Source: Chrysomallon squamiferum
Taxonomy: Eukaryota > Animalia > Mollusca
Direction of reading: 5' to 3'
DNA: 64,000 bases
NCBI GenBank assembly: GCA_012295275.1
Contig: CM022670.1
Location: forward strand, 14,880,001-14,944,000
Below are positions 8,601 to 63,871 of the stretch, in pieces. Within the stretch, counting starts at the first letter, position 1, and every line of letters starts with the position of its first letter. The position numbers and the translations under genes were made by a program. Under the pieces are notes generated by a model. The model was not told the origin of the DNA, searched no databases, and saw only the letters and a list, made by a program, of their open reading frames with translations.

Positions 8601-11600
8601 TCCTTGATATTCAAAACAAGAGCAGTAACAGAAAAAATACTGATAAGATATCCACAATTTATAATAAGTGCATCTCTTTAATAGTGAATGTCTTCATTAT
8701 GAAACTGTTAAAACTTTCTGAGGATGCTACTTTTAGTCATGCCTTTGACGACAATACCCACAAACAATTATTAACATTTAAACAATAAACGAAATAGCTA
8801 AACTGTTCTAAATGAAAGAAAATATGTAACTTTCATGATATTCATAAAAAATGTGAACTATTGCTGGTATAAATGTGAAAGTGAAGAACCTAGGGCAAAT
8901 TATTAATTATTTTCTTACCTTTGTAAGGAACATTGGGACATGTAACAATAACAGAGGCTTTGTGCTCCTGTTCTAGTCGCTGGTTAAACACTTCCATGTG
9001 TAACAAACCCAGAAACCCAAGTCGCCAACCCTGACCTAAAGCTGGGCTGTAAAAGTTATTAGTTTACTAATTAATAATTAAAAAAATACCAAAACAACAA
9101 ATCATTAAATAAAGAACAAGAACCAGGTACTGAATAAAGCACAAAATTACTTTTAAATTTTTAATTTAATGTTTAACACTAATGCATTTTTTTGTTTGTT
9201 TTATGGCTAATCATGAAATACTTCAGCAAATTGTTAGAATTTCTTTACATAAAATATTTCATTGATTTTCTTTCAACTTAATTACTACAAGTATTGTATC
9301 GAATTAATGATATCAAATATTTTTTTACCAATTGAATTTCTATATTATTAAATGAGCTCCTTGAATTTTATAAAAAAGAATACAATTATTTTCCTTTTGT
9401 TAATTAATGAAAAAGTTTGAAACCTGTTGTCAGCATGTACAGAAACACTAGCATCATTGAGGGTTAGTTTCTGAATGGCACTTTGCAGAGCGTTATATTC
9501 AGACTGATCAGAAGGATAAATACCAGCAAACACCTGCAAGAAATAAAAATTCCTATTATATAAAACAAATATACCTCCACTAAAATAGCACTAAAAATAT
9601 ACCACCACTAAAATAGCCATATATCAATCTGTTTGCACTTTTTGGTAAAGCATGATATAATCCACAGTTATTTGGGAAAATAATTAAACTTATATTTACT
9701 GAATATTTTAATACAGGGGATCCTCAACATATGTTCTCATGCAAATATGAAAACATGACAAATAACAAAATGTCATATAAAGAGGAATTTTTGTAATAAC
9801 ATAGATACATTTCAAATAAACCATATTTTCGCAACTTCACTTACACAAGCATACTGCAATGTACCTACAAACAATAATAAATGTGTAACATATAACCAGC
9901 TATACCATATAAAAATAAATATTGACTAAAAAAAAAATAACAAATTAGTGCCAAGGTGTTCACTCATTCCTTATTTGTTGCCAGTGGAAGTGCAAAACAA
10001 TGTACATAGGATAAACACAGCATGATACTCTGCATTAAAATCTATAAATCTAAAAAATACAGGTACCAGTGCAACCTTGTTAAAACAAATCTAACACCCA
10101 CAGTTACTGGAATTTGTACATTTCAAAGGCATCACATATCTAATTAGTGGCTTGTTACCATTGGCTTAGCAGGTTTGAATCCAGGTAGTGGTTCAACAGG
10201 TATGTCTTGGTGGTGAAAGGTATCCCCAACTTGTGCTTCCTTTGTATTTCTCATATTAGTTATCACATAGCCTACCTGACCAGCATATCTGAAACAATAA
10301 TTAATAATTTTTTTCGAACAGAATAATTTGTGTAATATAAAAAATATTTTAATTTTTTTTTAAAAAGATGTTTCGCATATCAGAATTATCTTCAGCAAGA
10401 TCGGAACTGGAAATATAAATTTCTGGGAGGCTCAAATTATAACTTTCAGTTAAGCGTTTTTCTCAAGACTGAACTTTTTTGATGATAATGAACGAAACAA
10501 GCAGGTTTATTCCATATGATCCAGATTAAGAATAAATATACAGAAAAACAATTTTAATTAATTAACATCTATTTACTGCCTTTTATGAAATAAAAATATA
10601 TAACAGAGCACATCTCTGGGACTTGTGTAATTATAAAAACATAATTTTTTTAATAAATTATAATCCATTTTTTGCCTTTTATAAAACTTAAAGATAAACT
10701 AGAGATAGTCTCTTGAATAATTATATTGTGATTACTAACAGTGTGGGAATGGAAATTTCCAGTGGATGCATCACACCAACGTCATGAACTTCATACACCT
10801 TGCGACTGGAGGCTGAAGTAATCTTGTCTCCTGAAATCAGAGTACTACATAGATTACACTAAAATTATTAATTAAAACTGAATTTTTATTTGTTGTTTTT
10901 TTTTGTTGTATTTATTTACTTACATATTTAATTCACTTATTTTTTCAATTATTTATTATTTGACATATTTACTTATGGGTCATTCCGTGTCAAATCACCC
11001 AAAAAAAAAAGAAATTTAAACCCGACCGTCTCAGATTTTTATAAAATTTGGTATACTTGTAGACTGGGATCCCACAGCACCAAATCTGAAATATTAGCCG
11101 AATCAGACCAGTGGTGTGGGAGATACGGCCCACGGAATTTTGAGATTTTTGCCAAAAATGGGTGTGACCACCAACCTTAGAACCCTCATATCTCAGGAAC
11201 TACTGGGCCAATCTTCACAAAATTGGTATTGTTAGAAAGGCAAAATGACAAGGATACCAAATCTGCCATTTTTGTTTAGTTTGGAAAATATTGGAGTACC
11301 TTGACCTTTTGACCTTTGCTATGACCTTGAAATTGACCGTGTGGATCACGTGATCTTGAGATGACCTTTATTGAAATTTAATCTCCCACATGTTAACTAA
11401 AACATATAAAAGTTTCCTGGGTGTAATATTTTTTGTTTAGCCACAATATAGATTTAAAAAATGCACATACCTGAAAATAACACGTTTACAGCAATTAACA
11501 TCTGATTGACTAAAACCTGAATGATCAATTCTGGATGCTAGGGATCACTATCTTTCTTGATCATCCAGTAAGACATTGTAGGCCTACATGTATGCATAAA

Positions 11601-14600
11601 GTTCACATAAATTTGAGAGAACTAGGTGTTTCTGATGCTTAACCTTCTCACTATGTTTGTTTCAAATGCTCACTGTATCCTTCATTCCCAGACACATTCT
11701 ACTGTTCTCATCACTTTCATAAAATTGGATTATTTCCTCCTTCAATTCATTGTCCTTTCAGTGGTAAATGGTGACAAAATCAAGATTTGCACACGCTCTG
11801 GGTAGGATTCAGACATTAAGATGTCATTTTAATGTTACTGTAGCTGATGCTAGTTTTTTTCTGTCCTTTCATTCATTTAGTGGAATGTGCTAGTGAATGG
11901 AGTTTGACAGGCGTTTCGCCTAAACTCAACAGAATAGAATTCAAATCAAAGTCCTTTTCTGGGGAAACAACAACCAGCGGTTTGTCTGGCAAGTTATCAC
12001 CAAATTCTCCCATTGTAGTACCACCCATACTAAAGCCATCCTCTGCAGGACCTTTGATTTCTGAAGGGTAATCAGACAGTCACAGCACAACTTGTCTCCT
12101 GGCACTAATGTCTTTGGAGGATTTACTAAGCATTTGTAAGTGCCCATGCTAACAATTCTTAAAGATCTAGTGTGTGCTTGCTCAGGGTGGCGATTAAGGG
12201 GATCACAACAGTTTTTCTGCGATGTTGAAAATTTGATGAAACGTTCTTGTTCATGATACTTTGATGTCCCGTGTTTTGATCCCACTTCAAAGAGTGAGGA
12301 GTTCGATTTCCTCAGTTTTCCATACATTAACAACTCCTTTTTGATATGATGGTGTTGATAACACACATTTTCAGGAGAGTTAAAGCTGCAGTTAGCCCTG
12401 GAAGAAATAAGGATTTTCAGTATTGGCCTGCACCTTCAATTCAAAGTCAGTTTTCCTAAATATTAAATCAAATCCTGAAACCCTTTCAGTAAAGTTAAGC
12501 AGGTCATAAAATGGCAGCAGAGTACATGTGTTATTGCCAAAGGCCCACAAGTCTTGGGCATTTATGTCAATCTTCTCAAGTATAAATCACAGTTTATTAA
12601 GGTGAAGTAGACCTTGTTCATACTCTTGCCAAGACTGGGTTACAAATACATTATGCAGTACATTTGATGACATCTGATTTCAGACTGGGTTGTACTGTTG
12701 TTGACTGAAGCCTTGTTCAAAACCAATGGCAAGGCCCACATGACATGATAAAATTACTTAATAGGTTTTATGAAATAAAAATATTGTTTATATATCAACA
12801 TCTGACATTGTGTCCAACTTAAAAAGCTTCAGATTGTCAAAGAAATGCAGATGAAGAAACTTCTTTGTCTTAAACTTCAAATTGCCATGTGCTCAATGGG
12901 GATTACCAGGGAATCTAAAGGAGTTCCTGACCTGTCTGAAGCATTACTTCCTGTTAACCCTTTGAGCCTGATTGTGTAGAACATGTCATGCCATTTGGCA
13001 TCTTTTCATATCCTTCAGGCATTCCTTCAGACATGTCAGGTGGGTTTTAACTCCAAAGATGAGTTTTTAGTCTCAGAGAAAATGTACATTGTAATGCATT
13101 GTATCAATCATCCATGCAGGTATGCATTTTTTTAAATCTCTATTAAGGCTAAACAAAAAATATTATACCCAGGAAACTTTTATATGTGAACTTTATGCAT
13201 ACATGTAGGCCTACAATGTCTTACTCGATGATCAAGAGAGATGGTGATTCCTAGCATCCAGAATTGATCATTCAGGTTTTAGTCAATCAGATGTTTAATG
13301 GCTGAAAAGGTGTTATTTTCAGGTATGTGCATTTTTTAAATCTATATTGTGGCTAAAACAAAAATATTACACCCAGGAAACTTTTATATGTTTTAGTTAA
13401 CATGTGGGAGATTAAATTTCAATAAACGTCATCTCAAGATCACGTGATCCACACGGTCAATTTCAAGGTCATAGCAAAGGTCAAAAGGTCAAGGTACTCC
13501 AATATTTTCCAAACTAAACAAAAATGGCAGATTTGGTATCCTTGTCATTTTGCCTTTCTAACAATACCAATTTTGTGAAGATTGGCCCAGTAGTTCCTGA
13601 GATATGAGGGTTCTAAGGTTGGTGGTCACACCCATTTTTGGCAAAAATCTCAAAATTCCGTGGGCCGTATCTCCCACACCACTGGTCTGATTGAGCTAAA
13701 ATGTCAGATTTGGTGCTGTGGGATCCCAGTCAACAAGTATACCAAGTTTCATAAAAATCTGAGACGGTCGGGTTTAAACCATTGGGTGATTTGACACGGA
13801 ATGACCCTTATTAATTCAGTTACTTACTTACTGTTTTGTTTATTTACTTTATTTATTAAAAGCAAACCTCTTTTAATCATTCCATCGACAACAACCATGT
13901 GAGTTATAACTCCTTTGTATTGGTCAAACCAGGAATCAAACAACAGAGCTTTCAGTGGCTTGGAAACATCGGAGCAAGGCCTGAAGATTTAAAAAAAACA
14001 TTTTGCTGTATTTAATGAATCAGATACTGTCCAGTCTAACTCTTCAACTGATTCCTGCAAATTTCAGATACTCCAACTTGTGAAATAGATAACATTTATG
14101 TGAACTCTTTTTTTTAATTTATTTTTATTTTTTATTTTGTCTCATTTCAAATATCTTGGATTAAAATATGATTTTTTTAATATAACCAATATTAGTTAGT
14201 ATGAAAGGTCTTTGGAACTGGGTTTTTTTGTTTATTATCATTTGTATTTTCAAAACTCTTAAACCCCAAATAGTGTATTTTAGAAATAAAATAACAAAGG
14301 TAAACATTTAATAATAAGTATTATAATTTACCTACGGTGGAATTCTGTCAATAATAGTCTTCAGAACATCTTCCACACCAGTTCCTTGCTTGGCTGATAT
14401 CTGCATACACAAAAATACTTTCTTTAATCACTGAATATATTTACTAGTTTTATAGAGATATTAAAATGCAATGGCATCCTTTATTAAATAAGTAATACAC
14501 ATAATAAATAAATAATTATTATATCTTGAAAGAAAACAATAAGATTTTATGTGCATACAAATATACTAAACCTTTTTCAGTTTAAAATTGAAGTTATATT

Positions 14601-17096
14601 TCTGAAATGTGAAGGAAAACTATTTTTATTTTTGTATATAATCTTCTAGTTCAAAACGAAATTCATGTTTTCCAAACTCAAATTATAGTTTTGTACTAAA
14701 AGGAAAATATCATGTATTTAAAATCTTATGAATTTGCAAATTTTTTTAATGTTTTTTTAAAATGCTTTAATCTATTGAACAGATTTGACTTTTTCATTCT
14801 ATTTATAGGCTAGTACTAAAAGTGTTTGTTGGTTTTTTTTAAATTATTTAAACTCATGTGAATTGTTGAAATTTTTTTTTTTTTTTTTATATGTTTACTT
14901 CTGTTAGCAGATTAAACATTTATACTCTGTTGTAATAAGTAAATGAACTATTTTTCAGTTCTGTTCATAAAATTCAGGAGTATTACCTTGAGAACTTCTT
15001 CAGGAGAAATGTCAAAAACATTCTTCATCTGTAATAAAACTTCTTCTGGCTTTGCAAGTTTGAGATCAATTTTGTTGAGGACAGGAATGACAGTCAACTC
15101 GCTCTCAAAAGCAAGATAGAAGTTTGCAACAGTCTGTGCTTGTACACCCTTCCATAATAAAACACAAGTCATTTAAGTAAGTGTTGTAATTGCTTTCAGC
15201 CACGGAAATGTTTTACAAGGTTTCAATGAATAAATATTCGAAATATAACAGATAATATCTTGAAATTAAAACAGATTTTGATAATGGTTGAGGATCTCAT
15301 TTTTTAAATACTAGGGATAAGAACTATTATAGATTTTTGAGTATAAGGTGATAACATTAAAATATGATAAAAGTTTAAATATGAATTTCATTCACATTTC
15401 ATATTCAATTTGAACAAATAGTTAAACACTCTGCACAATTCAAATGAATAACCAAATATACAATCAAATATCTCTCTAAAATTTAAACTTTTAGTTTGCA
15501 ATAACTGTTCTAGTGTAAGGTTAAACTAGTAATAACACAAAAAAATGATTTTTTTTTTCCCACAAATACAAATTAAACAGAGATTGCACTTCCATAAAAT
15601 TCAATCTCCCAGTTTAACCGTGATTCCATGCTGAAGGAGGATTCAAACTTTGTTTAAATGTAAGTATTTCTGATCACCATACATATTTAAATTGAAAATG
15701 AAAGAACCAAACAGTTGAATATAAAGATACCTGATTGGCATCCACAAGAAGAATAACCCCCTGACAGGCAGCAAGAGAGCGAGCCACTTCATAACTGAAG
15801 TCAACATGACCCTGAACAAAACAAGAAAAAAACACATTCCAAGCATAAATTACACATGGTCCTGATTAAACCATTTCAAAATGAACTTAATATAGTTTCA
15901 TGGATTAGTTTTAAGCTTCACTGCAAATACATGTCCAATAAAAGTTTTTACTGCCATATATTACTTTTAATATGTGTGAAATTTGGAGTTTTTTAATAAG
16001 AAATAACTGTTAGTAACATATTAAATAATTTAAGAAGAAATGTTATACATATGTTCAATGAATGGGAGAAAATTAAGTATTAAAATTGTAATTTAGTAAC
16101 TAATTTTAAATATAAAAATAAATGATAAAAATATCTTACAGGAGTATCGATAAGATTGAGTAGGTATGTTTGATTGTGGTATTTATAGAACAGTGACACT
16201 GTCTGAGCCTTGACAGTTATTCCTCGTTCTCGTTCAACTTGCAGTCTGTCGAGAACCTGCTGATTGTCTGCTGTTTTGGGAATAACTCCTACAAAACATA
16301 CAATTCTTGACTATACACAGATTTAAAAACAACCTGTTGAAAATAAAATAAATGTTTAGATGTTCTAAGCATTTCAGATTGCAGAATTAAGTCATGTATT
16401 TAAGATTTAACAAAAAAAAAAAAAATATGCCATCCATTGTGAGAATATCAGACTTTTACAACATTCTCAGAAAAATGCTTTTCTTTGAATGACAGTTTTA
16501 TAGAATTTTCTAACATGATTTCTTTTAATTTTTTATACTAAAACTGAAAGGTTTTAATATTTAAAAAAAAGAAAAAAAAAAAGAAATTAATGAGAAAAAA
16601 GAAGAAGTTATATAATGATTACAAGAAAGGTATCCTATTTTAAATGTTTAATTATAGGGTTTCTGGTAAGTGTCTGGGATTGTAGCTGTAACATGACCAA
16701 TCCAAATCACTCCAAAAATATGCTTAAATAAATAACCTGTCAATTCAAGAAGCCGATCAGCCAGAGTACTCTTTCCATGGTCAACATGGGCTATTATACT
16801 GAAATTACGAATTCTCTCCACAGGAAACTCTGATAAATCATAAGGTAGCTAAAATAAAAAATTAAATAAACAAATTTGTTTTAAATTTAATAACAGTTAA
16901 CTTTGCATAATTAATAAAATAATTTATTGATATTTAAAAGTCTAATATAATTTAAGGACCAAATGTAAAAAATATTTTTCGTAAAGTTTCTCTCTTAGTA
17001 ACAACAAATATATTTAAAACATCATCATGTCAGAATGTTATGTTGTAAAACACATTATTACAATTACATGATTATTATCTGTCTTATTTCAAATTT

Positions 17097-17134
<38 letters not shown>

Positions 17135-17202
17135 TTTAAAATATTTAATATTGTTACAGTACCTTTGCTGCATTCCTGTTCTGTATGGATCGATATAAGT
17201 AT
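5602..17202 (-). CDS. GUF1: Mitochondrial translation factor GUF1 (LepA/EF-4); exons 17202-17163 (probable), 16848-16737, 16288-16140, 15811-15731, 15148-14987, 14400-14336, 13980-13868, 10830-10740, 10288-10159, 9533-9424, 9046-8919, 8423-8353, 7768-7667, 7436-7303, 6748-6703, 6253-6041, 5727-5602; start-codon exon unresolved
   Basis: GTPase motifs [44 protein letters not shown] and NKID. Also [18 protein letters not shown] and the LepA C-terminus [27 protein letters not shown]. All exon phases are compatible. Confidence 0.97.
10977..13807 (-). mobile_element. Internally deleted, non-autonomous Sola2-type DNA transposon in a GUF1 intron
   Basis: Terminal inverted repeats of ~630 bp (10977-~11609 vs ~13183-13807) starting GGGTCATTCCGTGTCAAATCACCC and ending GGGTGATTTGACACGGAATGACCC. 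A 4-bp TTAT duplication flanks both sides (10973-10976, 13808-13811). GRG termini, long TIRs and a 4-bp TSD fit Sola2. Confidence 0.85.
11587..12366 (-). pseudogene. Degenerate N-terminal part of a Sola2-like transposase
   Basis: Broken reading frames give a Cys/His segment ([11 protein letters not shown]...[11 protein letters not shown]), then [11 protein letters not shown], then [39 protein letters not shown]. The last resembles the FY..D..SR..PG.KD...QKRL.L.NL.ELY motif I recall from Sola transposases. Stops are present and no catalytic DDD core is seen. Confidence 0.75.
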
Positions 17203-20761: not shown

Positions 20762-21289
20762 TTGTTGTTGTTGTTGTTTTTGTTTTGTTTTGTTTTCTTG
20801 TTGGAGCAGACTTTTGCCCAAAAGTCAAAGCAAAGTCTCTTGCTACACTTTACTGTTTCGATCAAAATCTTTGTCATCACGCACAGACTATGCATTTATA
20901 ATGGTTAAAATTATATACACAGAAGAAAATATTTTCTAAGCAGTCCTGGGGGGGGTTTTCATGAATTCATATATACTCCTTTTTCACGTAAACGCACACA
21001 CACACACACACAAACAAACGTCTGTAAATAAATTTGTTTGGCATTCTCTATTTCACTAATAACTTTTATTTTAGCACAGAGGTCGAAAATTAATTAGCGC
21101 CTGTTAATAATTAGGATAATTATTTTCTTTCTAATACACGTTAATAATATTTTTCTCTGATGTGAATGCCTAAAGTTAACAAATACGAAATGTTTATGTA
21201 ATATCAATATGTTAATGGAAACTTATTTTTTAAAACAGGCGAACAGTTAGTCTCAGTTTTCAAGATTCAATAAATAAGTACTGAATTAT

Positions 21290-21960
21290 AAAAATCTCTA
21301 CTCTGTTACTAAAATTCTACTCTGTTAGTAATACTTCTACTGTGTTATTAAAATTTCAACTGTATTTTTAAACTTCTACTTGTCATTAACATTTCTATAG
21401 TATTATTTAAATTTTACTGTACTATTAAACGTTCTAGTGCATTATTAAAGTTTCTACTCTGTTATTCAAATTTCTACTGCATTATTAAAGTTTCTACTCT
21501 GTTATTCAAATTTCTACTGCATTATTAAAATTTCTACTCTGTTATTCAAATTCCTAGTGCATTATTAAAGTTTCCTACTCTGTTATTCAAATTTCTACTG
21601 CATTATTAAAGTTTCTACTCTGTTATTCAAATTTCTACTGCATTATTAAAGTTTCTACTCTGTTATTCAAATTCCTAGTGCATTATTAAAGTTTCTACTC
21701 TGTTATTCAAATTTCTACTGTATTATTCAAATTTCTACTGAATCATTTAAATTTCTACTATATTATTAAACTTTTTATTGTTTTATTACATTTCTACTAT
21801 ATTATTGAAATTTCAACCGTATTTTTTAATTTCTATTGTGTTGTTAACATTTTTTCTGTTATTAAAGTTTCTACTGTACTATTAAAATGTCTACTGTATT
21901 ATTAAATTTCTACTGTATTTTAAAATTTCTACCGTTATGTTAGAATTTACACTGTATTAT
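21290..21960. repeat. Minisatellite, ~21-bp monomer with a ~42-bp dimeric core
   Basis: Tandem copies of (T)ATTATTAAAGTTTCTACTCTGTTATTCAAATTTCTACTGC. They are near-perfect at ~21440-21720 and degenerate toward both edges. Confidence 0.9.
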
Positions 21961-22269
21961 TAATTTGACATTTGACTTCAGCAACGAATGGGAATTTGCC
22001 ATATGTCGATATGTGCAGCTTAATGAAACGTTCGTCCTTAAGAGCCTTATAACGATTTATCTTAGATCGTGAGTAAGATTATCAGTCGCCATGGTTTCTT
22101 TCCAGACAAGCAGAGGCCAGTCATCAGGGTTAATGGTTTTCAGAGTTCATGTTCATTATATGGACTTGTAGGAACCGCAGCTTTTTCTGTGGTAGAGTTT
22201 GAAAATACCGCATTTTGCAGTCTGATTATTTATTAATTGAATATGAATCAGCCCTGACTTGCTCGTTTC

Positions 22270-24326: not shown

Positions 24327-25100
24327 ATGTCAATCGAAGTTGTGGATATCGAACAGGTGGTAAAGGATTACATAAAGAACGACTGGCTAGAAGACAAAGT
24401 GCGGAAAGACGCTGACATGGATAACGCAGAGATCAGGTGGGACAACGTGAAGTTCACTCATGAACCAGCAAAGTACACTTACGATGGCGAGGTGATAGAT
24501 AACGAAAGTGATCCTCATGCCGGAAAGTTGGTCTCACCCGGCGCTCACATAATCTTCACCGCGTATTTCACCAACAATACCAGCACTCAGCAGACGCACA
24601 CGTTAAGTACTGAACGACGTACGGAGTCCACGTGCACGGTGTCGTTATCCAAGACGTACACGCTGGGTGGTTCGTTCAACATCCGGTTAACTCCTCCGAA
24701 TCCAATAATCGAAGCTAATGCTGGATTTAAAGGAGAACTGAATAAAATGTCTGGACTCAGTGATACCTTTGCAAAAGAAATGACATGGTCAATTAACAGT
24801 GAGATCATAGTACCACAGCGCTGTTGTACCAAAGCTGATCTGGTTATCAAAGAAGACAACTTTGATGGCAATTTTACACTTCGTACCAAATTAGAAGGCA
24901 CGATTGTTTATACAGTGTGGGACAAAAAGAAAAACCATTTGTCAACTGGACGTTTGAACGTAAAAAACATTTTTAAATCTAACAAATCATTTCAGGTAGA
25001 AAAGGACTGCGTCTGGTTCACCACTCGAGGAAATTGTAAATGTCGATTTGGTGTCGAACAGAAAATGGATTTAACTGAGACAAAATTAGAGGATCCTTGA
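24327..25100 (+). CDS. LIN-24-like / aerolysin-ETX/MTX2-type beta-pore-forming protein, 257 aa, single coding exon
   Basis: ATG in AAAATGT context 17 nt after an acceptor. Motifs: F.NNT...QT..L.TER.T.STC, an amphipathic Ser/Thr/Gly-rich hairpin (TVSLSKTYTLGGSFNIRLTPPNPIIEANAGFKGEL), TWSINSEIIVP....KADLVIKE..F.G.F, and C-terminal G.C..RFGVEQ. All are typical of LIN-24-like pore-forming modules. No signal peptide is evident. Confidence 0.85.
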   Translation: MSIEVVDIEQVVKDYIKNDWLEDKVRKDADMDNAEIRWDNVKFTHEPAKYTYDGEVIDNESDPHAGKLVSPGAHIIFTAYFTNNTSTQQTHTLSTERRTESTCTVSLSKTYTLGGSFNIRLTPPNPIIEANAGFKGELNKMSGLSDTFAKEMTWSINSEIIVPQRCCTKADLVIKEDNFDGNFTLRTKLEGTIVYTVWDKKKNHLSTGRLNVKNIFKSNKSFQVEKDCVWFTTRGNCKCRFGVEQKMDLTETKLEDP

Positions 25101-26588: not shown

Positions 26589-27182
26589 TCAGATCAGTTC
26601 TCTGAAATATCTTTCGCAATTCTCTTTTGCGTTCTTCTTCTTCAGGAAAACCATAATAAAATCATCTTCAACCTATTAAAATAATTTAAAATATCCATTA
26701 CAAAATAATAACAGTTAACTTAATGCTGATAATAATAATAATTTAAAAATAATAATAATAAATAAAAAATTAACTAAAATAAAAAAAATAATAATAATTA
26801 TAATAATTAAATAATAAAAAATAATAAATAACAGTTACTAGTTTTATTGTATTTCAAAAATATCATTTTAAATGTATTTTATGTTTATACCGTTTTAAAA
26901 CTAAAGAAAATCTTAACGTAGAACATTTGTTTATACATCTTATGTAAATACGTGAAATGTAACTTTACCTCAATCAAACACTCAGAAAGATCGATATCAA
27001 ACTCACAGTCCCAGGACTTCTCTTTCGTGTACTTCGTACCGTCACAGTTGACATCTATTCTGTAAAACCTACAGTATTTTGTTTGTATATAATTTTAGAT
27101 GTATTTATCTGTTTGTACATATAAACTGCTTCTATATTTTTTCACCTGGCAAAGCTAAAAGATATTTACAACAGAGGATGAG

Positions 27183-27240
<58 letters not shown>

Positions 27241-27543
27241 ATAATTAAAAGTGGAAATCATTAATCAGTGATTCTATAGTTCAAATACTTTCAGTTTTAA
27301 ATCTATCCAAACTCACTTCTCTTAATTAATTTAAAATACTTGTGTTAAGTCAATTTAAATTAAATAAAGAAGTAAATAAAAAAGGGTACTGTTAACAGAC
27401 CTCGAACCAAACTGATGGTCGATAGTGGCATTCTTGGCGCTTGTTTTGTTTTGTGTTGCAGCCCACGAATTTTAATTCTGATTCTAACGAAACCGTTCCT
27501 TGAACGCTCGTCACAGTCTGTAAAATGACACATTTATAATTAT

Positions 27544-27595
<52 letters not shown>

Positions 27596-28006
27596 GAATA
27601 AATAATTATAAATAGATAGCAAGAAATAAAATGAAATGAAAAGAAATGAAATAAAGGTCAAAGAAATGAAATAAAGGTCAAGGAAAACCACGTTACTCAT
27701 TAATGGATAATTTGTTAATTCAAATCTGTAGCTGAAACCAGTAAATAAAAATAAAGTGTTTAATTATAATTTTAATTAGTAATATTTCGAAATTATTATT
27801 AAAATAATCATTTCAGTTTATCTTAATTAATATTTAAGGACAATGAAAAAAAAAAATATATATATATATTGTCATAGCCTATAAATGAGAAATAATAACG
27901 AATAGTGATAATTATAATAAATAAGTAAATAAAGTACGGAAGAACCGGTACACATTTATAAAAGAAGAAGTAATTATACTTTACCACAATCTGGTATTTC
28001 TGCCAT
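26589..28006 (-). pseudogene. CS/p23-like small protein, paralog C (divergent, frameshifted); exons 28006-27985, 27517-27401, 27068-26969, 26672-26589
   Basis: MAEIPDC-DCDERSRNGFVRIRIKIRGLQ..(frameshift)..TSAKNATIDHQFGS-RFYRIDVNCDGTKYTKEKSWDCEFDIDLSECLIE-VEDDFIMVFLKKKNAKENCERYFRELI*. Intron positions match paralogs A and B. Exon 2 is 117 nt where 3n+1 is needed. Confidence 0.7.
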
Positions 28007-28468
28007 AATTTCTGCTTAATCTTGTTGCGATGTTGGATTTGTCTTGTTGGTTTTCACTGCTACCTGGCAACGAAATGTACACAAAAATATTTAAAACTAA
28101 ATTTCTTTTTAAAATAATTATTGAAATATGTTATATTTTGTTTAGAAATTATCTAAACCAGTTGAAAAAATAAAAAATATTTATATATATTTATTAAACA
28201 AATTAATAAATAGACAAAAGAAACAAAGGAATTATGATAATAACTGCATGTTATTTTCGTATATTATGCTTGATTAAAGAAAATCTTTAATTGCAAAAAA
28301 TATCTTAGGTTTTTTTCACAGCAGTTTACTCCTTATTTAAATGTAAACTTTAATTTCAGAAATACGAATAAAAACGTTATGTGACTCCACTTACATTTAT
28401 GATATATTATTCTTTTGGATTCTAAAAATAGAATTCCACATGTATTTTGGTGGAGACATAAGTAAGTC

Positions 28469-28647
28469 ATGGCTGGATTTAGACCTATGAGAGGCCCCAA
28501 GTTAATAACACACGATGTCGAGGCCCTGTTTGGTGCGCTTTAATAGTAAATAAATATTATACCAAAGAAACGAAACTTTAGAGGCCGCTAAAGACTGCGA
28601 GGCCTTACGCTGCAGCAAATTTTAGATTATACGTGAATCCTGCTCCG
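28469..28647. mobile_element. Short degenerate hAT-like MITE (paralogous truncated copy ~35612-35760)
   Basis: Imperfect inverted ends CATGGCTGGATTTA / TGAATCCTGCTCCG, with repeated internal GAGGCC(C) motifs in a GC-rich patch. No clear TSD. Confidence 0.4.
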
Positions 28648-28926
28648 TTATCTGCAGTCTGATTAGAACACAAGTATGTAGTAATTATTATTAATCTCCT
28701 TCTTCTAAAATCAATACAGCGTATTTGCATATTCTGATGTGAGAAAATTGTCTCCGTTGGGTTTGAATGTGGATGTGAAACTTCAGTTAGGTTATCTCCC
28801 TACGCATCGATGGATGCAGCAGTTTATTCAATGGGGCAGGCGAACGTACAAACAGTATAACATGTTATTATGTCATATTTGTTCTTTATATAGTACTATT
28901 CTAAGTTCTGGATTAATTAAAAAGAG

Positions 28927-28974
<48 letters not shown>

Positions 28975-29286
28975 TTTGTTTGTTGTTGTTTTCTGTTAAT
29001 TCTTTCTTTCTTTATTATTATTGTTACTATGATTGTATGAAATGTATTAATTACTGCCCGAGAACGTTCGAATATGTTACTAGGTTACATGAATGTGTAA
29101 GCATGTCAGCTGATTTTTTTTTGTTTGTACTGTCAATATTAAGCGATTTATTTCCTGGTTATTAAAGAAAATATGATGCCTGCATACATATCATTACTTA
29201 CAAGAATATTCATGCCACACACCAGAGCTTACAAATTAGCATACGTATTCAGCTATATTAAATTCATTAACATCAGTATTTATTAA

Positions 29287-30513: not shown

Positions 30514-33395
30514 CTAAGCAGCATCTAGGTTTGCATTTCGAATAAACGTCATCCAGGACTGATTTTTGTCCTTTTTCTTCAGATATACATGCACCCAGTC
30601 TTTGTTTACCTATAACAGTAAAATAAACTTTCATTAAAAAAAAATAACAACACACACACACATACATATATATACACACACACACACATATATATATATG
30701 TAATTATTATTATTATTATTATTATTATTTGTATAGAGATGTCCTAGAAACCAAAGAAAATCTGCTTTTTACTATTCAGTTTTTTGACTATTATTAATTA
30801 TTATCTGACATTTAGGTATTAAATCAATAATCGAAGTATACACTTTGTATCCATATATTAATTATATGAATTGGAAGCTATGTATATGTATATATATACT
30901 CAGTGAATAATTATTTCACCTATAAACATATAATTTAAAACATTCTCAACACAAAATGTACAGTGTAAACTGTATTATTATTGTTTTTCAAACAAAAATT
31001 ACCTGTGTATCAAAATCTATTAAAATGAATATAAAAAATTTAAGTCACAATTAGTTTCTTTGTTTTAAGAAATCTCTGATGTAGTAAGCATGTTAAATTA
31101 GAACAGTGGGCTGCCAGTCTTCTTTGAATATCAACTCTTTTATAGAATTATTAATCCTCACTGTATTTTACATACATTTTATTAATTTTTTTTTTTAAAT
31201 ATACCAAAGTATGGTGACAGACAAAACCCTGAGATAATTATAAGCAAACTGTTCCTTAAACAGACTTAATTTACCTTTCCTTGAAATTATTTTAATATTA
31301 TTAATGAACAGATATGCTTGACAATGTTCAGTGTTATTAATATTTGATATCAAACTTGTGAGTTTTAGCACTAGTCTTCATATTCTTGCAGGCTTATTTT
31401 ATTTCTTTACTTTGTTAACGGAAACATTAGCATGGGTTAATGCCAACTTGAATGGTCTATGAACCTGGATAAGCAAACAACAATAATATTTATTAATATT
31501 AACCCAAAATGAACTGGGATATTCTCAGTTTGAATATTCTGCACATTTCTAGAATAATGGAGAAATTTGGTTTCTGCATTACTTTTCATTTTGTATATTA
31601 TAATCAAAAACAATGTTTCATATATTACAATGTATATAATCTGGAGACAAAAAAAAAAAAAAATGAATGTTTAATATTGAAAAAGAAAAGTTTTTAAATA
31701 TGTGTTTTTGCAGGCTTCAAAAATGTGTTACATATTTTCATTCAATTTAAATTCTAATACTAAAACTGACCAGGTACATAGTTGTATGTATCTTTAGAGA
31801 GAACTGAAATAAAATCAAAGAAAGATTGTATATTCACTAGTATATGCATCTATGGTGCATCAAAGAATGGGTTGTGTGTTTTTCAAATTTCACTGAGGGC
31901 AATGTATCTAAAATATCTCTATTTCTTTGAAAGCTGATATACAGTATTTTTTACATAAAGTAAGCCAAAACATACCTCAAGGGTGCAACCTGCTGGGATA
32001 ATTTCATAGGGAAGCTGTCTGACTATGAAAGCATAGTTCTGTCCCCTCAGGTCAGATTGTCCAATAATCTTCAGGTTATAGTGCCTGTCACACATTTAGG
32101 AAATAAAAATTAAAAAAATAAATAATAAAAAACAAAATAAAATTAAAATAAATTAAAATAGGTAATTGAATTAAATGATTTGGAAGTGCCATTTGTGTAT
32201 CATTAATTTGCTGTAATAGACTAACATATATTGAGAGTTTGTGCCAGAATGTGAAAAATACATTAAATATTATATATTTAATTATACTGTTTAGTTATTA
32301 TTTGTGATTTACTGAAATTCACTTTATGAGCTGATGTAATAGAAAAAGGAATATGGAAAACAAATTTTTACCTGGTACCAATATCTTTATTGATCTCGGC
32401 ATTTTGAGCCTCTGTACCTGTTTGCGTCCATTTTTCCCAACATGAAGATGATTGGGGCTTTATTCCAGGAATTTTCATCCGGATATGAACATTGCCAAAT
32501 GAACTTTCATCGTAATCTGAAAATTAAGAACTTCAGTAACAGACATTTGTTTTCTGTTTACATACAACAAACAATAAACCACTCGTCTTTCCTCACATAA
32601 TATTCAGCCTGTTGGTCAAGAATCAAATATAAACTATTAAATTATTTTACATGAGTTGAAAGTTTTGTCATAAGTTTGAATATGTAAAGGTTTTTTTTTT
32701 TACAGGAATATCAATGTCTATCTTTATTAAATATAAATGTGTTTTATAAATTTTTCTTGTGTTTCAGTTTAATATTCTTTAATTATTAATATGCTTTGAA
32801 TTTACAATAGTGAACTAATTACATCACTCTCTTCAGTTTTAGGTAAAGTTTTGTCAGCTGTTTCTGAACAAGCAAGTAGTACAGATTAATATGGTGTTAC
32901 AGGCAGTAAACAATTCTGTACATTAATGTTCTTTTGTTCTTTTAATTCTGTTTGAGATAAATAAACTTTCATTAAAAAAGATAGTAATAACAACTTTCAC
33001 ACACACAGAGATGCAACATGACTGATGCATGTTTTGTTAAAACGGTCAATTACGTTTCAAAACGTTTAACAGACTATCTGTGGTATTATTAGAAACAACG
33101 TACAGTTAAGACTGCTTACACAAATATGTTTGTATATATATATGTTGTACAAATCAGTCCATTCATTAATTTTCACAACATGCGGATACGTTGGCACATC
33201 GAAAACGGCATTTATCCAGGTGTTTCGAACATAATATGAAAATTGTTCGGCAAAACCACATTGAACTTTTATGCTTTAGTTTATAGGTAAACATTTAGAC
33301 TGATGTAAAAATACTCATGTCACACACTGATTTAGATTTATTTGTTTATTTATTTACCACAGTCTGGTTATTCGAACACGATCAGATCATCTGTT
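30514..33395 (-). pseudogene. CS/p23-like small protein, paralog A (exons 2-4 open, exon 1 damaged); exons ~33395-33358, 32516-32372, 32084-31976, 30609-30514
   Basis: Exons 2-4 read YDESSFGNVHIRMKIPGIKPQSSSCWEKWTQTGTEAQNAEINKDIGT-RHYNLKIIGQSDLRGQNYAFIVRQLPYEIIPAGCTLE-VNKDWVHVYLKKKDKNQSWMTFIRNANLDAA* with canonical splice sites. Exon 1 lacks the ATG and has an in-frame TAA at 33370-33368. It could still be coding from another start. Confidence 0.7.
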
Positions 33396-34809
33396 CGGTT
33401 ACTTCCGCATCAAACTATTTCAATGTTTGCCGAGTATCAGTGTTCAAGTATTTACCAAAGATCTCAAAACAATTTTTATTTTTATTTTTATTTTTTTCAG
33501 AATTAGTAACATCTTTTAACTCATTATCATTATGGTCAATTTTCTTGACTAATCAAAACGAAAAGTAAGAAACAAATTAACAATGAAACGAAAATAAATA
33601 ATATTACTTAATTAATTAATTAATTAATTATTTTTTTTTTTTTTCAGTGAAAACAGCGTAAAATTGAAGCGGTGTTCATTTCAATAAGTTGCTTTTCAAA
33701 ACACTGAAGTGTGTCACGATAAAACAATTACAGTGAAATGAACCAAAAATGCAAACGAAACCCATCGAGGGGGAAAAAATAAAATTATCCGAGGGGGGGG
33801 TTGAAGAAAAAGAAAGAAAATAACAACAAACAAAAAATATACACAAAAAACAAAAACAAAAAAACCAATATAGTATCCGCTGGCGTTGTTTCTTTTAAAA
33901 ATAACGTTCAGTTTTCATTTACATAAATACCAACAGCAAAAAGGGGGGAGAAAGAAAGAAAGAAAAATGATTGATTTCACAGTAAACGTAAACGCTTTTT
34001 ATATTTGCGCTGGCAGCAGAACAATAAATCGCAGCAAAACGTAGACTGTAATATTACATTGTTTTCATTTCTTTTCAAACAACGTATAACATTATTATTA
34101 CTATTTTTAAATTCTACAATTTCTTAATCCTTTGAACATCATTACTGAAACAATGACAATAACAATGACTTTATTCTCATAAACTGTAGGATTATAGTAC
34201 AGAGACGAATGTATTACAGATATATAATAACAAAATTAAAATGCACATGCGTGGAAGTTTAACGTGGAGGACATACTCTCTCACGTATAGATCTTATTAA
34301 CAAACACTTATTAATTGTTAAACAAATTATTATATGAAATTGTATTTAGATGTCTCATGTATTTATTTAGTTCACCTTTTCTAGCATTTAATAACACAGG
34401 ATTATTACATTCAAATACATAGTGATATATTCATCTCCAATTTTGTTAAGATTACAAATATGACATTTTCTATTTTCTTTTAGAATATTAGACCATCAAC
34501 CAGTTTCAATAGGAAGTTTAGCATTAAAGATTCCAAATTTACATGAGACATTAACATTCTTTTGAGATAGCAATTTAAGATAGTTTTCTAATTTCAATTC
34601 ATTTTTACAATTTTTACAATTAATATCCTTTGAAGACGTTTCAGTTTGATTTTTCCATGTTTGTTGATATTTGGTTCATGTGTAATTTATCAAAAAAACA
34701 TTATTGTTACAGAGAGAAAAATATGATTATTTAAAATCAGAACACACGTTTATAATCTATAGTCATATCCGCCGAGCCTGAAGATATGACACAAACAAAT
34801 CAGTCTTCC

Positions 34810-34869
<60 letters not shown>

Positions 34870-35135
34870 TGAAAAATAAATAAGTAAATATAATTTTAAT
34901 TAGTAATATTTCGAAATTAATTACTTAATGTCAGTCATACTGTTGTTAAAATAATCATTTCAGTTTATCTTACTTAATATTTAATTACAATGAATATATA
35001 TATAATATATATAGTTACAGTTATAGCATTTAATAGAGAAATAATTACGAAATAATGATAATTATAATAAATAATTAAATAAAGTACGGAAGAACTGGTA
35101 CATTTTTGTAAAAGAAGTAAGTTAGTATAATTTAC

Positions 35136-35215
35136 CACAATCTGGTGTTTGTGCTATAGTTTCTGCTTAATCTTGTTGCGATGTTGGATTTGTCTTGTTG
35201 GTTTTCACTGCTACT
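35136..35215 (-). pseudogene. Orphan duplicated first coding exon of paralog C
   Basis: Copy of 27985-28063 with ATG changed to ATA and the acceptor CCAG changed to CAAG. Its own downstream exons are absent beyond the (TAA)n junction at ~34810-34866. Confidence 0.75.
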
Positions 35216-36053
35216 TGGCAACGAAATGTACACAAATATTTTTTAAACTAAATTTCGTTTTTAAAATAATTACTGAAATATGTTATATTTTGGTAAGAAA
35301 TTATTTAAACCAGTTGAAAAAAAAAAAAAAAAAAAAAAAATACAAAAAATTGTTAAACAAATTAATAAACAGACAAAAGGACCAAAATAATTATGATATT
35401 TTCGTATATTATTCTTGATTAAAGAAAATCTTTAATTGCAAAAAATATCTTAGGTATTTGCACAGCATTTTACTCCTTATTTAAATGTAAACATTAATTT
35501 CAGAAATACGAATAAAAACGTTATGTAACTCTACTTTCATTTATGATATAGTATTTTTTTCGATTCTAAAAATAGAATTCCATATCTATTTTGGTATAGA
35601 TATATGTAAGTCATAACCAGCTTTAGACCTATGAGAGGCCCCAAGTTAATAACACACGATGTCGAGGCCCTGTTTGGTGTGCTTTAATAGTAAATAAATT
35701 TTATACCAAAGAAACGAAACTTTAGAGGCCGCTAAAGACTGCGAGGCCTTACGTTGCAGCTATCAGCAGTCTAATTAGAAAACAAATATGTAGTAATTAT
35801 TATTAATCTTCTTCTTCTAAAATCAGTACAGCATATTTGCATATTCTGATGTGAGAAAAGTCTCCGTTGGGTTTGAATGTGGATGTGAAACTTCAGTTAG
35901 GTTATCTGCTGCGCATCAGTGGATGCAGCAGTTTATTCAATGGGACAGGCGAATCGTAGAACATGTTATTATGTCATATTTTTTCTTTGTTTAATACAGT
36001 TTTAATAAAAGTTTTGGATTAATTAAAAATAGATAATAATAATAATAATAATA

Positions 36054-36103
<50 letters not shown>

Positions 36104-36864
36104 TTTTGTCAGGGGTTTGTTTGTTGTTGTTTTCTATTAATTATTTCTTTATTTGTTGTTATTATTGTATGAAAATTATTAATACTGCCCGAGAACATTC
36201 GAATATGTAACTAGGTTACACGAATGTGTGAGTATGTCAGGTGATTTATTTATTTTAAACTGTTTTTGTATAGGCATTATCCAAATGAAAGAATTTACAA
36301 TTTCTTATATTTTTTTTTTTTTTCCAGCTAATTAAACGTTAATAGTCTTTGCTTTTAATAATTATAGATATCTTAGAACCCGTCCCTGTATTGTAAGTTA
36401 ATAATCATATCTTCTTTTGATGGCAATAATTGTTTCGTTCCCACGAAATATTCGTCTCCTTGTCAGTTTGTATGGTCTAACTGCTAGCGCACCATCGTAA
36501 GAACTAAGTTATTGCTTAACGTGAAAAATAGCAAAGAAATATGCTTTTATTATTATTGGTGGTAATTTTTTGTAAAAAATATATAAATTTTTTGCATGTG
36601 CAATAAATAATTTAACACAGATGTTAGGAACCTATATATATATACATTTTTAAAATTATACAACCACACTAAATTTAGCAAGTTGCTAAACTATTCACTC
36701 ACTATAGTTTAAACATGAGGTATACTGATGAGAACAAAATATGTAAATTGCTTGATAAGCGGACCAGGAGCAACTTTAAATTACAATCAAGTTCTAACTC
36801 AGTGTTTTAAGCCTCTGGTAAATAATTAATTTAGAAAGCTTTTTTTTTTGTATTTTAATTAATT

Positions 36865-37260
36865 AATGTTCAGTGAAAACAGCGTAAAATTGAAGCGGTG
36901 TTCATTTCAATAATTTCCTTTTCAAAACACTGAAGAAGTATCCCGGTGAAACAATTACAGTGAAATGAACCAAAATGTAATCGAAAACTAGAGAGCGGAA
37001 AAAAACAAACAGCAATAGAAAGCTTATATAGTATACGCTGGCCATGTTTCGTTTAAAAACAAAGTTCAGTTTTCACTTACATAGGAAACCCATAAATACC
37101 AACAGCAAATTACCGAGAGGAAGGGGGGGAGAAAGAACGAAAAGAAGATCGATTTTTCAGTAAACTTAAATGCTTTTTATCCTTGCGCTGGCAGCAAAAC
37201 GCAGACTGTAATATTACATTGTTTTTATTTCTTTTCAAACAACGTATAACATTATTATTT
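36865..37260. repeat. Third copy of a ~400-470-bp block also at ~33640-34100 and ~40485-40930
   Basis: Shared strings AGCGTAAAATTGAAGCGGTG, TTGCGCTGGCAGCA, AGACTGTAATATTAC and TTCTTTTCAAACAA occur in all three copies. Confidence 0.9.
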
Positions 37261-37575
37261 ATAAATAAAGAAATAAATAATAAAAATAAAGAACTTGATA
37301 AATCTAATGAAAAGATTTAATACATGTTATTTATCACTGACAGATTTTTATATCATTCATTCAAATCATCTTTTTTCACTGTTGAGTAAACAGTAAGACC
37401 ATTAAAGTCTAGTATGAATTAAAATCAATGAATCCACTTTTAATGCTCTCGATTAGAGTCATTCATTATCCTTTGGTATTGAGCATGGATTGTTCACAAT
37501 TCCACCTCACTCACTTTAGATCCACTTTCAACAGATCATTCATAGTAGTTCTGGTTATGCAGTGAAATGACACAG

Positions 37576-40250
37576 TTACTCGTCAGTTTCTAGGGTTCCT
37601 CTCTGAATGTACCTCTCCCAAGACTGATCTTTGTCCTTTTTCTTCAGAAATATGTACACCCAGTCTTTCTGTAGCTACAACAGCAAAACAAAACTTTAAT
37701 TAAGAAAACAAAATAATAACCATGCCCACACCCACACCATCACTACTATTACTGTTAAAGTAATAAACTAGAATGCAAAGAATACCTGCTTTTTAATATT
37801 CACTTTTTAAACTATTAACTGTATGATATTCAGGTTTAAATAAATAATTACTGTTTCCAAAATAAATTCAACAATGTATACAGACAGTGTATAATTTATT
37901 CATGACAACACATAATTTAACTTATGAAGATATAGATTAAAACATTCTCAACTGAAAAAGTGCAGTGTTAATTGTATTTGTATTGTCTCACAAGTAAAAA
38001 TTACCCACATATTAAATTTCATTAAAATGAATATAAAAAAGTTAAGTCATAACTAGTTTTAAGAAATCTCTGATGTAGTAAGCATGTTAAATTAGAACAG
38101 TGGGCTGCCAGTCTTCTTTGAATATCAACTCTTTTATAGAATTATTAATCCTCACTGAATTTTACAAAAATTTTAGTTTTAAAAAAAGTACCAAACTATA
38201 TTGATTGTAATAATATCCTCAGATAATTAAAAGAAAACTGTTCCTTAAACAGAATTATTTTACCTTTCGGTGAGATTTTTTTGATTTGATTAATGAAGAG
38301 ATATGCTTTACAATGTTCAGTGTTATTAATATTTGATATCAAACTGGTGAGTTTTAGCACTAGTCTTCATATTCTTGCAGGCTTATTTTATTTCTTTACT
38401 TTGTTAACAGGACACTAGCATGGTTAATGGAAATTGAACAATTTATCAACCTGGATATGCAAATAACAATAATATTAACTCAAAATGAATGAGGCTGTAC
38501 TGAATTTGCATTTTCTAGAAAAATTCTAGAATAATGAAGAAATATATTTTCTGCATTACTTTTCATGTTTATAATTTAAAACAATGTTTATATATTACAG
38601 TGTATATAATCCGGAAACATAAAATCCAAAGAAAAACTGACAAGATTCACAGTTGTATATATCTTTACAGACAAATGAAATAAAATCAAAGAAAGATTGT
38701 ATATTTACTAGTATATGTATCTATGTAGCATCAAATAATGGATTGTGTGTTTTTCAAATTTCACTGAGGACAGTGTATCTAAAATATCTCTATTTCTTCG
38801 AATGTTGATATACAATCTAATATTCTTTATATAAATTATGCCAAAACATACCTCAAAGGTGCACTTGTGTGGGATAATATCAAAGGGAAGCTGTTTGACA
38901 GAGAAAGCATACTTCTGTTTACTCAGGTCAGACTGTCCAATAATCTGCAGGCTATAGGACCTGTCATAGGGAAAAAAAAAAAAATAAAAATAAAAATAAA
39001 TAAAAATAATAATAATAATAATAAAATTAAACTTGGTAAAGGAATAAAATGATTTAGAAATGTTAATTCTAGGTCATTAATTTGCTGTAACATGCTAACA
39101 TATACTGAGAGCTTATACCAGAATGTGAAAAATACATTAAATATTATAAATATAATAATTTTTTTAGTCTTGATTTGTTATTTACTGAAATTCACTTTAT
39201 GAGGAGATGTAATATATAAAAAGGAATATGAAAGACAAATTTTTACCTCATGTCAATTATAGGACCAACAAACTTGGCATTTTTCGCCTTTGGAATGTTT
39301 AACAGCATTTTGTTAAACACTGAAGCTGCATGGGGCTCTATTCCAGGAATCTGCAGACGGATTCTAACATAGCCAGGTCTTGATCTTTCATCGTAATCTG
39401 AAAATTAAGAGCTTAAAATAACAGACATTTGTTTTCTGATTACATACAACAAACAATAAACCACTCGTCTTTCCTCACATAATATTCAGCCTGTTGGTGA
39501 AGAATCAGATATAAACTGTTGTATTATTTTACACGAGTTGACGGTTTTGTCATGTGTTTGAATATGTAATATTTCTTTACAGGAATATCAAGGAAATACT
39601 GCAAAATATATATCACACGTGTATCTTTATTATATATAGATATATAAATGTGTTTTACAAACGTTTCATGTGTTTGTGTTTTATGTTCTTTAATATATTC
39701 CAAATAGTTATACTCGTTTTCTTCGCTCTCTTCACTTTCAGGTACAGCTTTGTCAGCAAGACGTAAAGATGACTATAATTCTTATAGGCAATAAACAGTT
39801 CTGTAAATTAATGGGTTGTTGTTGTTTTAATTCTGCTGGAATCCGCTTGTTACAAGGCATGGATCGTTTAATGCCATATCTGGTGTGTAAACGTTCAGAT
39901 GGTAAACATTATCAATATATATCATTTACATTGAGCTGTTCAGATTAGAATGAATGAGGCACATTTCAAAAACAGTTTAACAGCCTGTGTAATATTATTA
40001 TAAGTGTACAGTAAGCACTCCTCACACAGATGTATGTATATACATCGTATACAATTCAGTCTTTGAAACAAGCCGACACCCTGACGTCATCGTTGACAAA
40101 TATAAAACATCGTCCTGCAACACTACATTAAACTTTTATGATTTTTTATAATTTACACATCAACGATTGTTATCTGATGTAAATATTCAGATTTAGATTT
40201 ATTTACTTACCGCAGTCTGGTTCCTCAAACTCGGTCTTATCATCTGTCAT
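37576..40250 (-). CDS. CS/p23-like (CacyBP/SGT1-type CS domain) small protein, paralog B, intact, 132 aa; exons 40250-40211, 39397-39247, 38960-38852, 37674-37576
   Basis: GCCATG start and exon lengths 40+151+109+99=399 nt with GT/AG ends. Protein: MTDDKTEFEEPDCDYDERSRPGYVRIRLQIPGIEPHAASVFNKMLLNIPKAKNAKFVGPIIDMRSYSLQIIGQSDLSKQKYAFSVKQLPFDIIPHKCTFELQKDWVYIFLKKKDKDQSWERYIQRGTLETDE*. The pattern Y....V.I...G / RS..L......Y...V..L...I.P..C / V.I.L.K.....W resembles the CS beta-sandwich. The gene structure is solid; the domain call is by eye. Confidence 0.8.

Positions 40251-41164: not shown

Positions 41165-41203
<39 letters not shown>

Positions 41204-53792: not shown

Positions 53793-63871
<10,079 letters not shown>

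Follow-up and report, generated by a model that had tools for sequence, protein, structure and literature searches.

Introduction

When the exons of two tandem gene copies differ more than their introns, has selection driven the proteins apart, and if so, in which copy? The question is raised by two genes, A and B, on the minus strand of a 64,000-nucleotide stretch of the genome of the mollusc Chrysomallon squamiferum (GenBank assembly GCA_012295275.1, contig CM022670.1, positions 14,880,001 to 14,944,000 of the forward strand; hereafter the window, in whose coordinates all positions are given), for which an initial annotation had claimed a strong signature of diversifying selection. That observation is real but overstated. 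The reading that we hold, with a little more than even confidence, is that A took most of the amino-acid change after the duplication, likely through episodic positive selection on an inserted segment of a small protein of predicted CS fold, with B keeping the ancestral role and the locus turning over. To what was noted before we add exon 1, the lesions of A, a third paralog (C) and the finding that the change is one-sided.

Two published systems offer a background. Among the abalone sp18 duplicates one copy is fast, and no pseudogenising mutation is reported (PMC9022041); the GOT1 paralogs of Tigriopus contain divergence islands amid gene conversion (PMC3728101). On fast-evolving or expanded CS-domain families in molluscs full-text searches, in a body of text mostly without subscription journals and without supplements, returned no relevant paper; gene tables of the snail genome papers could mention the locus.

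Results

Divergence of exons and introns

A and B are tandem copies of four exons each, with GT-AG borders (Table 1). The spliced model of B exons 1-4 is open over 132 amino acids; the joints of B and C, and the joint between exons 3 and 4 of A, rest on models and collinearity, not on reads. Exons 2-4 differ between the copies at 97 of 350 sites (0.28), the introns at 456 of 2193 columns in the raw alignment (0.21) and at 336 of 1951 after filtering (0.17). That exons diverge faster than introns is borne out by these figures (28% vs 17-21%; Fisher p = 0.003 raw, 6e-6 filtered), but the identical intron block cited with that claim is atypical of the introns, and with the identity tracts described below removed the raw contrast is left at p = 0.06. 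The synonymous divergence of the exons (dS, 0.21-0.26) matches the intron distance (0.20-0.28), which means that the exons have no greater age than the introns.

The codon counts behind the earlier claim were largely reproduced. Exon 3 has 13 changed residues and one silent-only codon, over 36 whole codons and not 37 as given; exon 4 has 16 of 31 residues changed and one silent-only codon, exactly as noted; and exon 2, which our check of the borders found to keep its frame with a net 6-nt length difference as described, has 28 of 47 codons that change the amino acid and two that are silent-only. Together with the identical intron block, such silent-only counts overstate selection: 29 codons are multi-hit, and the silent steps within them are missed.

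Pairwise dN/dS, the comparison that had been proposed as a check, is above 1 to a degree that depends on the method. By Nei-Gojobori counting (NG86) dN (nonsynonymous divergence) is 0.35, dS 0.26 and their ratio, omega, 1.33 (bootstrap P = 0.15), with omega = 0.87 for exon 4 alone; by Goldman-Yang maximum likelihood (GY94 ML, 114 codons) omega is 1.9-2.0, with p = 0.041-0.058 in the likelihood ratio test (LRT). In a block-resampled neutral simulation, which keeps the raw intron mismatch pattern, the share of silent-only codons expected is higher than that observed (P = 0.009-0.05).

One-sided change in copy A

To obtain an outgroup, 1.84 billion representatives were searched by HMMER with exon 3 as the query. 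Of the three matches, one is credible (E = 2e-14): this protein, P0001, is the uncharacterized LOC121375817 of Gigantopelta aegis (XP_041359408.1). The other two (P0002, P0003) are repeat-rich and were set aside. B and P0001 have the same length and align without gaps, with 84 of 132 residues identical; over the 114 codons compared, identity to P0001 is 51/114 for A and 74/114 for B. Polarised by P0001, the 57 residues that differ between the copies comprise 29 derived in A, 6 derived in B and 22 that remain without polarity (p = 1e-4).

The same asymmetry appears in a three-taxon codon ML analysis, in which the outgroup enters as amino acids only. With equal synonymous lengths, omega_A is ~4 and omega_B ~1, and omega_A = 1 is rejected (p = 1.3-1.8e-4); with lengths fixed from the introns, omega_A is 2.4-3.6; with unequal lengths, omega_A = 1 is rejected in five of six settings (p = 3e-8 to 0.03). 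Mapped on the predicted structure, as the initial annotation had suggested, the changes are concentrated in an inserted helix-plus-strand segment, a hot spot in which 21 of 27 residues are changed. At hydrophobic strand positions, 2 of 21 lose hydrophobicity in A, a number that is not significant alone (P = 0.05-0.56). Exons 2-4 of A contain no stops (P = 0.04-0.2) and no frameshifts, though in 32 of the 40 intron indels the length is not divisible by three (P = 0.08, one lineage); A was therefore likely coding during most of its divergence.

Homologues and predicted fold

A and B are predicted to encode small cytosolic proteins of the CS (SGT1/p23-like) fold. The fold tests were made on P0001, not on spliced A or B. 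An Atlas model of P0001 (predicted template modelling score, pTM, 0.74) aligns to CS regions with a TM of 0.62-0.69. With our own model, CS domains take all of the top five places among 48,161 chains, the best being that of Sgt1 (Z = 6.3, root-mean-square deviation 4.0, 93 aligned residues); the Sgt1 CS matches have Z of 6.3, 5.4 and 5.3. Foldseek on the same model agrees on CS, with a best E of 1.4e-3 that is below its significance bar. In the Atlas, P0001 is placed at 0.89-0.93 beside CS-bearing clusters of molluscs and flatworms; the placement of exon 3 alone (0.80-0.82) is a lead only. An Atlas cluster of mollusc proteins of ~136 amino acids has 171 members, mostly from Mollusca, 15% of which carry CS; its score is 0.92.

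The insert, made up of a helix plus an additional strand at residues ~36-63, follows the second strand of the predicted fold. Two further proteins (P0004, P0005) differ from P0001 at 5 of 51 exon-2 residues, four of them within this same insert. Neither a hydrophobic N-terminus nor a signal peptide was seen in B, C or the outgroup in a hydropathy scan, which is not a dedicated predictor (maximal KD11 in the first 30 amino acids −0.3, 0.59 and −0.22, respectively). The beta-sandwich predicted here is common to the CS-domain proteins (CHORD-SGT1, PF04969; SGT1, p23/Sba1, CacyBP/SIP, Shq1, NudC), from which the A/B family is set apart by standing alone at 132 amino acids, in which no TPR or SGS domain was found, by the lack of CHORD and by its ~28-residue helix-plus-strand insert. 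Canonical CS co-chaperones are conserved, whereas the A/B family evolves fast.

Other searches returned little. Nothing was found in a word-based homolog search with exon 3 of A and B (five candidates), which is weak evidence; metagenome scans for homologs gave no credible match, and one locus (L001), a 33-residue match in GC-rich, bacterial-looking DNA, was rejected as chance. PDB sequence searches gave no significant match, and the profile of our alignment A5, which leaves out the second half of A exon 2 and exon 3 of C, matches 0 PDB sequences.

Transcripts, lesions and versions of copy A

Reads of three of the four RNA runs (X1, X2, X3) and one DNA run (X5) were compared over positions 32340-33480. 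A is spliced: X3 has both the joint of exons 1 and 2 and the use of another donor, at 33120, and exon-3 letters follow the exon-2 donor in X1 and X2. Exon 1 of A carries an in-frame TAA at 33368-33370 (codon 10) in the window and in all three covering runs, among them the spliced X3 contig, which includes the ATG segment, has no change listed within the TAA and thus represents spliced RNA with a disrupted frame. The window, moreover, is without a 14-nt ATG-bearing segment at 33390 that is present in three of three covering runs (X1, X3, X5), so that its absence is either private to one allele or an error in the assembly. Neither 5' form of A provides an in-frame start before the derived ATG of exon 2, and the TAA haplotypes of A are likely nulls. 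Because every haplotype read at the site has the premature stop, part of the selection signal of A may be recent decay.

A further, A-like version comes from X2. Its two contigs in this region do not include the A type described above, but a spliced A-like transcript is present that differs from it at 15 positions over 147 nt. All 12 of its listed exon-2 differences lie in amino-acid-changing codons (P = 0.04-0.06), 11 of them in exon-2 codons 22-35, that is, in the insert, and 30 nt of exon 3 contribute two further amino-acid changes. This transcript carries Leu where A has the derived Met, and its contig misses the diagnostic stop position by a single base. The version in X1 and X3 has three listed differences, in two amino-acid-changing codons. 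A B-type intron piece from X2 agrees with B of the window at 9 of 10 diagnostic sites, so that X2 is likely the same species, and its A-like version is either an allele or an extra copy. X5 covers intron 1 of A at ~99% and is uninformative over most of exon 2, where the listed pieces give no cover.

Identity tracts in the introns

The identical intron block of ~100 bp given in the initial annotation is present and measures 102 bp, and two more tracts of identity or near-identity accompany it (Table 1). The runs of 102, 62 and 59 nt exceed the maximum of 56 nt reached in 10,000 permutations. The tracts have no Rfam match, no stable fold (z −0.2 to 1.05) and no further long copy in the window; they were rejected as small nucleolar RNAs, microRNAs or hidden exons, there being no Rfam match, no stable fold and stops in most frames, and one duplex z of −2.2 among three tract pairs was taken as chance. 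Given these negatives, the 102-bp block and the others are probably the product of gene conversion, with regulatory constraint as a possible alternative; a check of the introns for conversion had been advised from the start, and runs longer than permutation allows make it likely.

Table 1. Coordinates of the A/B/C locus in the window.
Feature	Position	Strand	Basis and remarks
Gene B exon 1, coding part (ATG to phase-1 donor)	40211..40250	-	Gene model, collinear with P0001
Gene B exon 2, first CS strands plus inserted helix and strand (predicted)	39247..39397	-	GT-AG borders
Gene B exon 3	38852..38960	-	GT-AG borders
Gene B exon 4 and stop codon	37576..37674	-	GT-AG borders
Gene A exon 1, 5' end approximate	33358..33460	-	Model and spliced joint 33358->32516 in RNA run X3
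Alternative upstream segment joined to A exon 2, donor 33120	33120..33205	-	One X3 contig
Gene A exon 2; hypervariable insert ~32375-32455; A-derived in-frame ATG 32476-32478	32372..32516	-	GT-AG borders
Gene A exon 3	31976..32084	-	GT-AG borders; exon-3 letters past the exon-2 donor in X1, X2
Gene A exon 4 and stop codon	30514..30609	-	GT-AG borders, collinear with P0001
Gene C, older paralog	26589..28006	-	Model exons 27985-28006, 27401-27517, 26969-27054, 26589-26672
Co-duplicated copy of C exon 1, ATA replaces ATG	35136..35157	-	Same phase as C exon 1
102-bp A/B identity tract, intron 3, candidate gene-conversion tract	31062..31163		Copy at 38056-38157
Second near-identity tract, intron 3 (36 + 62 nt)	31321..31419		A/B comparison
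59-nt identity tract, intron 1	32558..32616		A/B comparison
(AAT)18 duplication junction	34812..34865		Left flank resembles tract 41167-41202; right flank resembles tract 27547-27591

Discussion

These results can be read as a textbook pattern, in which one duplicate accelerates, the introns are partly converted and lesions come later. In the mechanism that we favour, B would still act as the ancestral adaptor or co-chaperone, the insert and surface of A would have been driven by positive selection to suit a partner that had changed, with the insert acting as the partner-binding surface for a changing client, gene conversion would have made the intron identity tracts, and the TAA haplotypes would be nulls in a birth-and-death family, alongside divergent versions.

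A number of results weigh against positive selection on A or against the fold assigned to it. The pairwise LRT is borderline (p = 0.04-0.06) and NG86 is not significant; the count of amino-acid changes is not above the neutral simulation at raw intron divergence (P = 0.055-0.64), and part of the 29 multi-hit codons could be multi-nucleotide mutations. With unequal lengths, the null survives (p = 0.16) in the setting that leaves out the insert and takes the largest intron distance. The outgroup is a protein only, so synonymous change is unpolarised, and the free fits with unequal lengths mostly hit a boundary. Three of the X2 differences are unlisted, and if all were silent the replacement excess would vanish (P = 0.4-0.5). 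As to the fold, our own model of P0001 is poor (predicted local distance difference test, pLDDT, 47), and Pfam CS (PF04969) was unmatched at E<=1 in P0001 and also in six single exons. On balance we regard episodic positive selection on A as likely, with moderate support. The strong diversifying selection claimed earlier thus gains from the outgroup (29 vs 6 derived residues), but it is borderline in the pairwise comparison and is better described as an episode on A than as symmetric divergence of both copies.

The alternative that shares most of these facts is a loss of constraint on A, that is, an early pseudogenisation with omega ~1, in which the exons would merely look faster than the introns because conversion partly homogenised the latter and clustered mutations inflated dN. 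It would account for the TAA in the window and in three of three covering runs and for the second lesion in the window, for identity tracts of 102, 62 and 59 nt where permutation reaches 56, and for the borderline pairwise tests, the unexceptional counts of amino-acid change and the p of 0.16 in the worst-case fit. Yet exon dS matches the intron distance, silent-only codons are too scarce, neither stops nor frameshifts interrupt exons 2-4, the core is retained, and the null is rejected in five of six fits; we consider this account possible but rather doubtful. It is quite improbable, in our judgement, that A with its TAA is instead still functional, translation re-initiating at the exon-2 ATG to give a 103-amino-acid protein without the first two CS strands, perhaps a decoy. 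Such a product fits an ATG that arose in A, where B, the outgroup and the X2 version all have Leu, and a spliced gene whose downstream frame is open for 103 amino acids, but in the haplotype of the window four short upstream out-of-frame open reading frames (ORFs; exon 1) or six (alternative segment) precede an ATG of weak context, and the loss of strands 13-16 and most of 23-29 would likely unfold the CS sandwich.

The toxin and gamete-recognition roles mentioned in the initial annotation, under which the gene would encode a secreted protein in an extracellular arms race, are the least probable of all. They draw on the resemblance of high dN with alignable introns to the abalone lysin/sp18 duplicates (PMC9022041), and on an aerolysin-like gene 1.5 kb from gene C; against them stand the absence of a hydrophobic N-terminus in B, C and the outgroup, where neither a signal peptide nor another hydrophobic segment was seen, and a fold that is of the cytosolic CS type. 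The abalone study shows tandem duplicates with exon borders in common, of which one is much less similar to the outgroup than the other (41% vs 69%), as here; sp18 and lysin, however, are secreted sperm proteins, whereas our proteins are predicted to be cytosolic and the fast copy has a stop (PMC9022041). The likeness to Tigriopus GOT1 lies in the alternation of identical with divergent tracts along the paralogs and in the presence of non-functional copies, with the difference that here the identity tracts make up a small share of the introns and exon dS equals the intron distance (PMC3728101).

Returning to episodic selection on A, what is unusual is the kind of protein on which it would act: a small one that carries a hypervariable insert, is predicted to be cytosolic and of CS fold, and belongs to a mollusc family that is widespread but uncharacterised. 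An intracellular host-microbe conflict is possible. SGT1 acts in immune-receptor chaperoning, and our leading, though tentative, guess by analogy is that the selective agent would be a protein of a symbiont or pathogen. A bolder proposal, which we think unlikely, is that, in vent snails that carry symbionts, the stand-alone CS-fold family would serve inside the cell as a hypervariable module for recognition or co-chaperoning. Locus A would then maintain exon-2 alleles that are ~10% divergent (about a quarter of the insert sites) together with nulls under balancing or arms-race selection, much like an immune-receptor locus, and would do so on a fold that is otherwise familiar from conserved Hsp90 co-chaperones. 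If diversity at the level of alleles is confirmed, it would point to a recognition surface inside the cells of symbiont-hosting animals that has not been described before.

Origin of the duplication and neighbouring features

Self-BLAST of the window delimits the tandem duplication to ~27.7-34.85 kb vs 34.87-41.2 kb. Because the flanks of the junction match AAT tracts at 41167 and 27547, an unequal crossover between two AAT microsatellites would be its source. The duplicated flank differs at 125 of 1253 sites, and the duplicated region upstream of C (27765-29100 vs 34870-36260) is 10% divergent, half the value for the A/B introns, which suggests constraint or conversion in the promoter copy.

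The model of gene C is open over 102 amino acids, its exon 2/3 border being that of a model. Within the window, C exon 2 matches B exon 2 (tblastn E = 1e-5); relative to A and B, C has a shorter exon-2 insert and a far more divergent exon 3. A word-based database search with C exon 2 (four candidates) found no homolog, which is weak evidence. The copy of C exon 1 lies 1.7 kb upstream of A exon 1, and an allele with ATG at this copy could give A a replacement first exon. Tail-to-tail with C, at 1.5 kb, is a single-exon, intact ORF on the plus strand (24327-25100, 257 amino acids); it encodes an ETX_MTX2 domain of the aerolysin type (E = 1.7e-8), and the N-terminus is not strongly hydrophobic.

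The DNA of the window is AT-rich and eukaryotic, with a GC content of 25-37% per 2 kb and ~28% overall; the genome report on two peltospirid snails gives genome means of 34.5% and 37.5%, above that of the window, and a split of the two ~66 million years ago (PMC7736800). Multi-exon genes on the minus strand flank the locus at ~6100-17200 and ~54300-60850. By their motifs, these look like GUF1/LepA and FAM135, and they would serve as anchors in comparisons of synteny. An inverted repeat (10974-11609 / 13183-13810; 637 bp, 95% identity), whose arms enclose ~1.6 kb of core sequence containing the remains of an ORF, resembles a DNA transposon within an intron, and a minisatellite at 21279-21966 consists of a degenerate ~20-bp unit with an 80-bp higher-order period.

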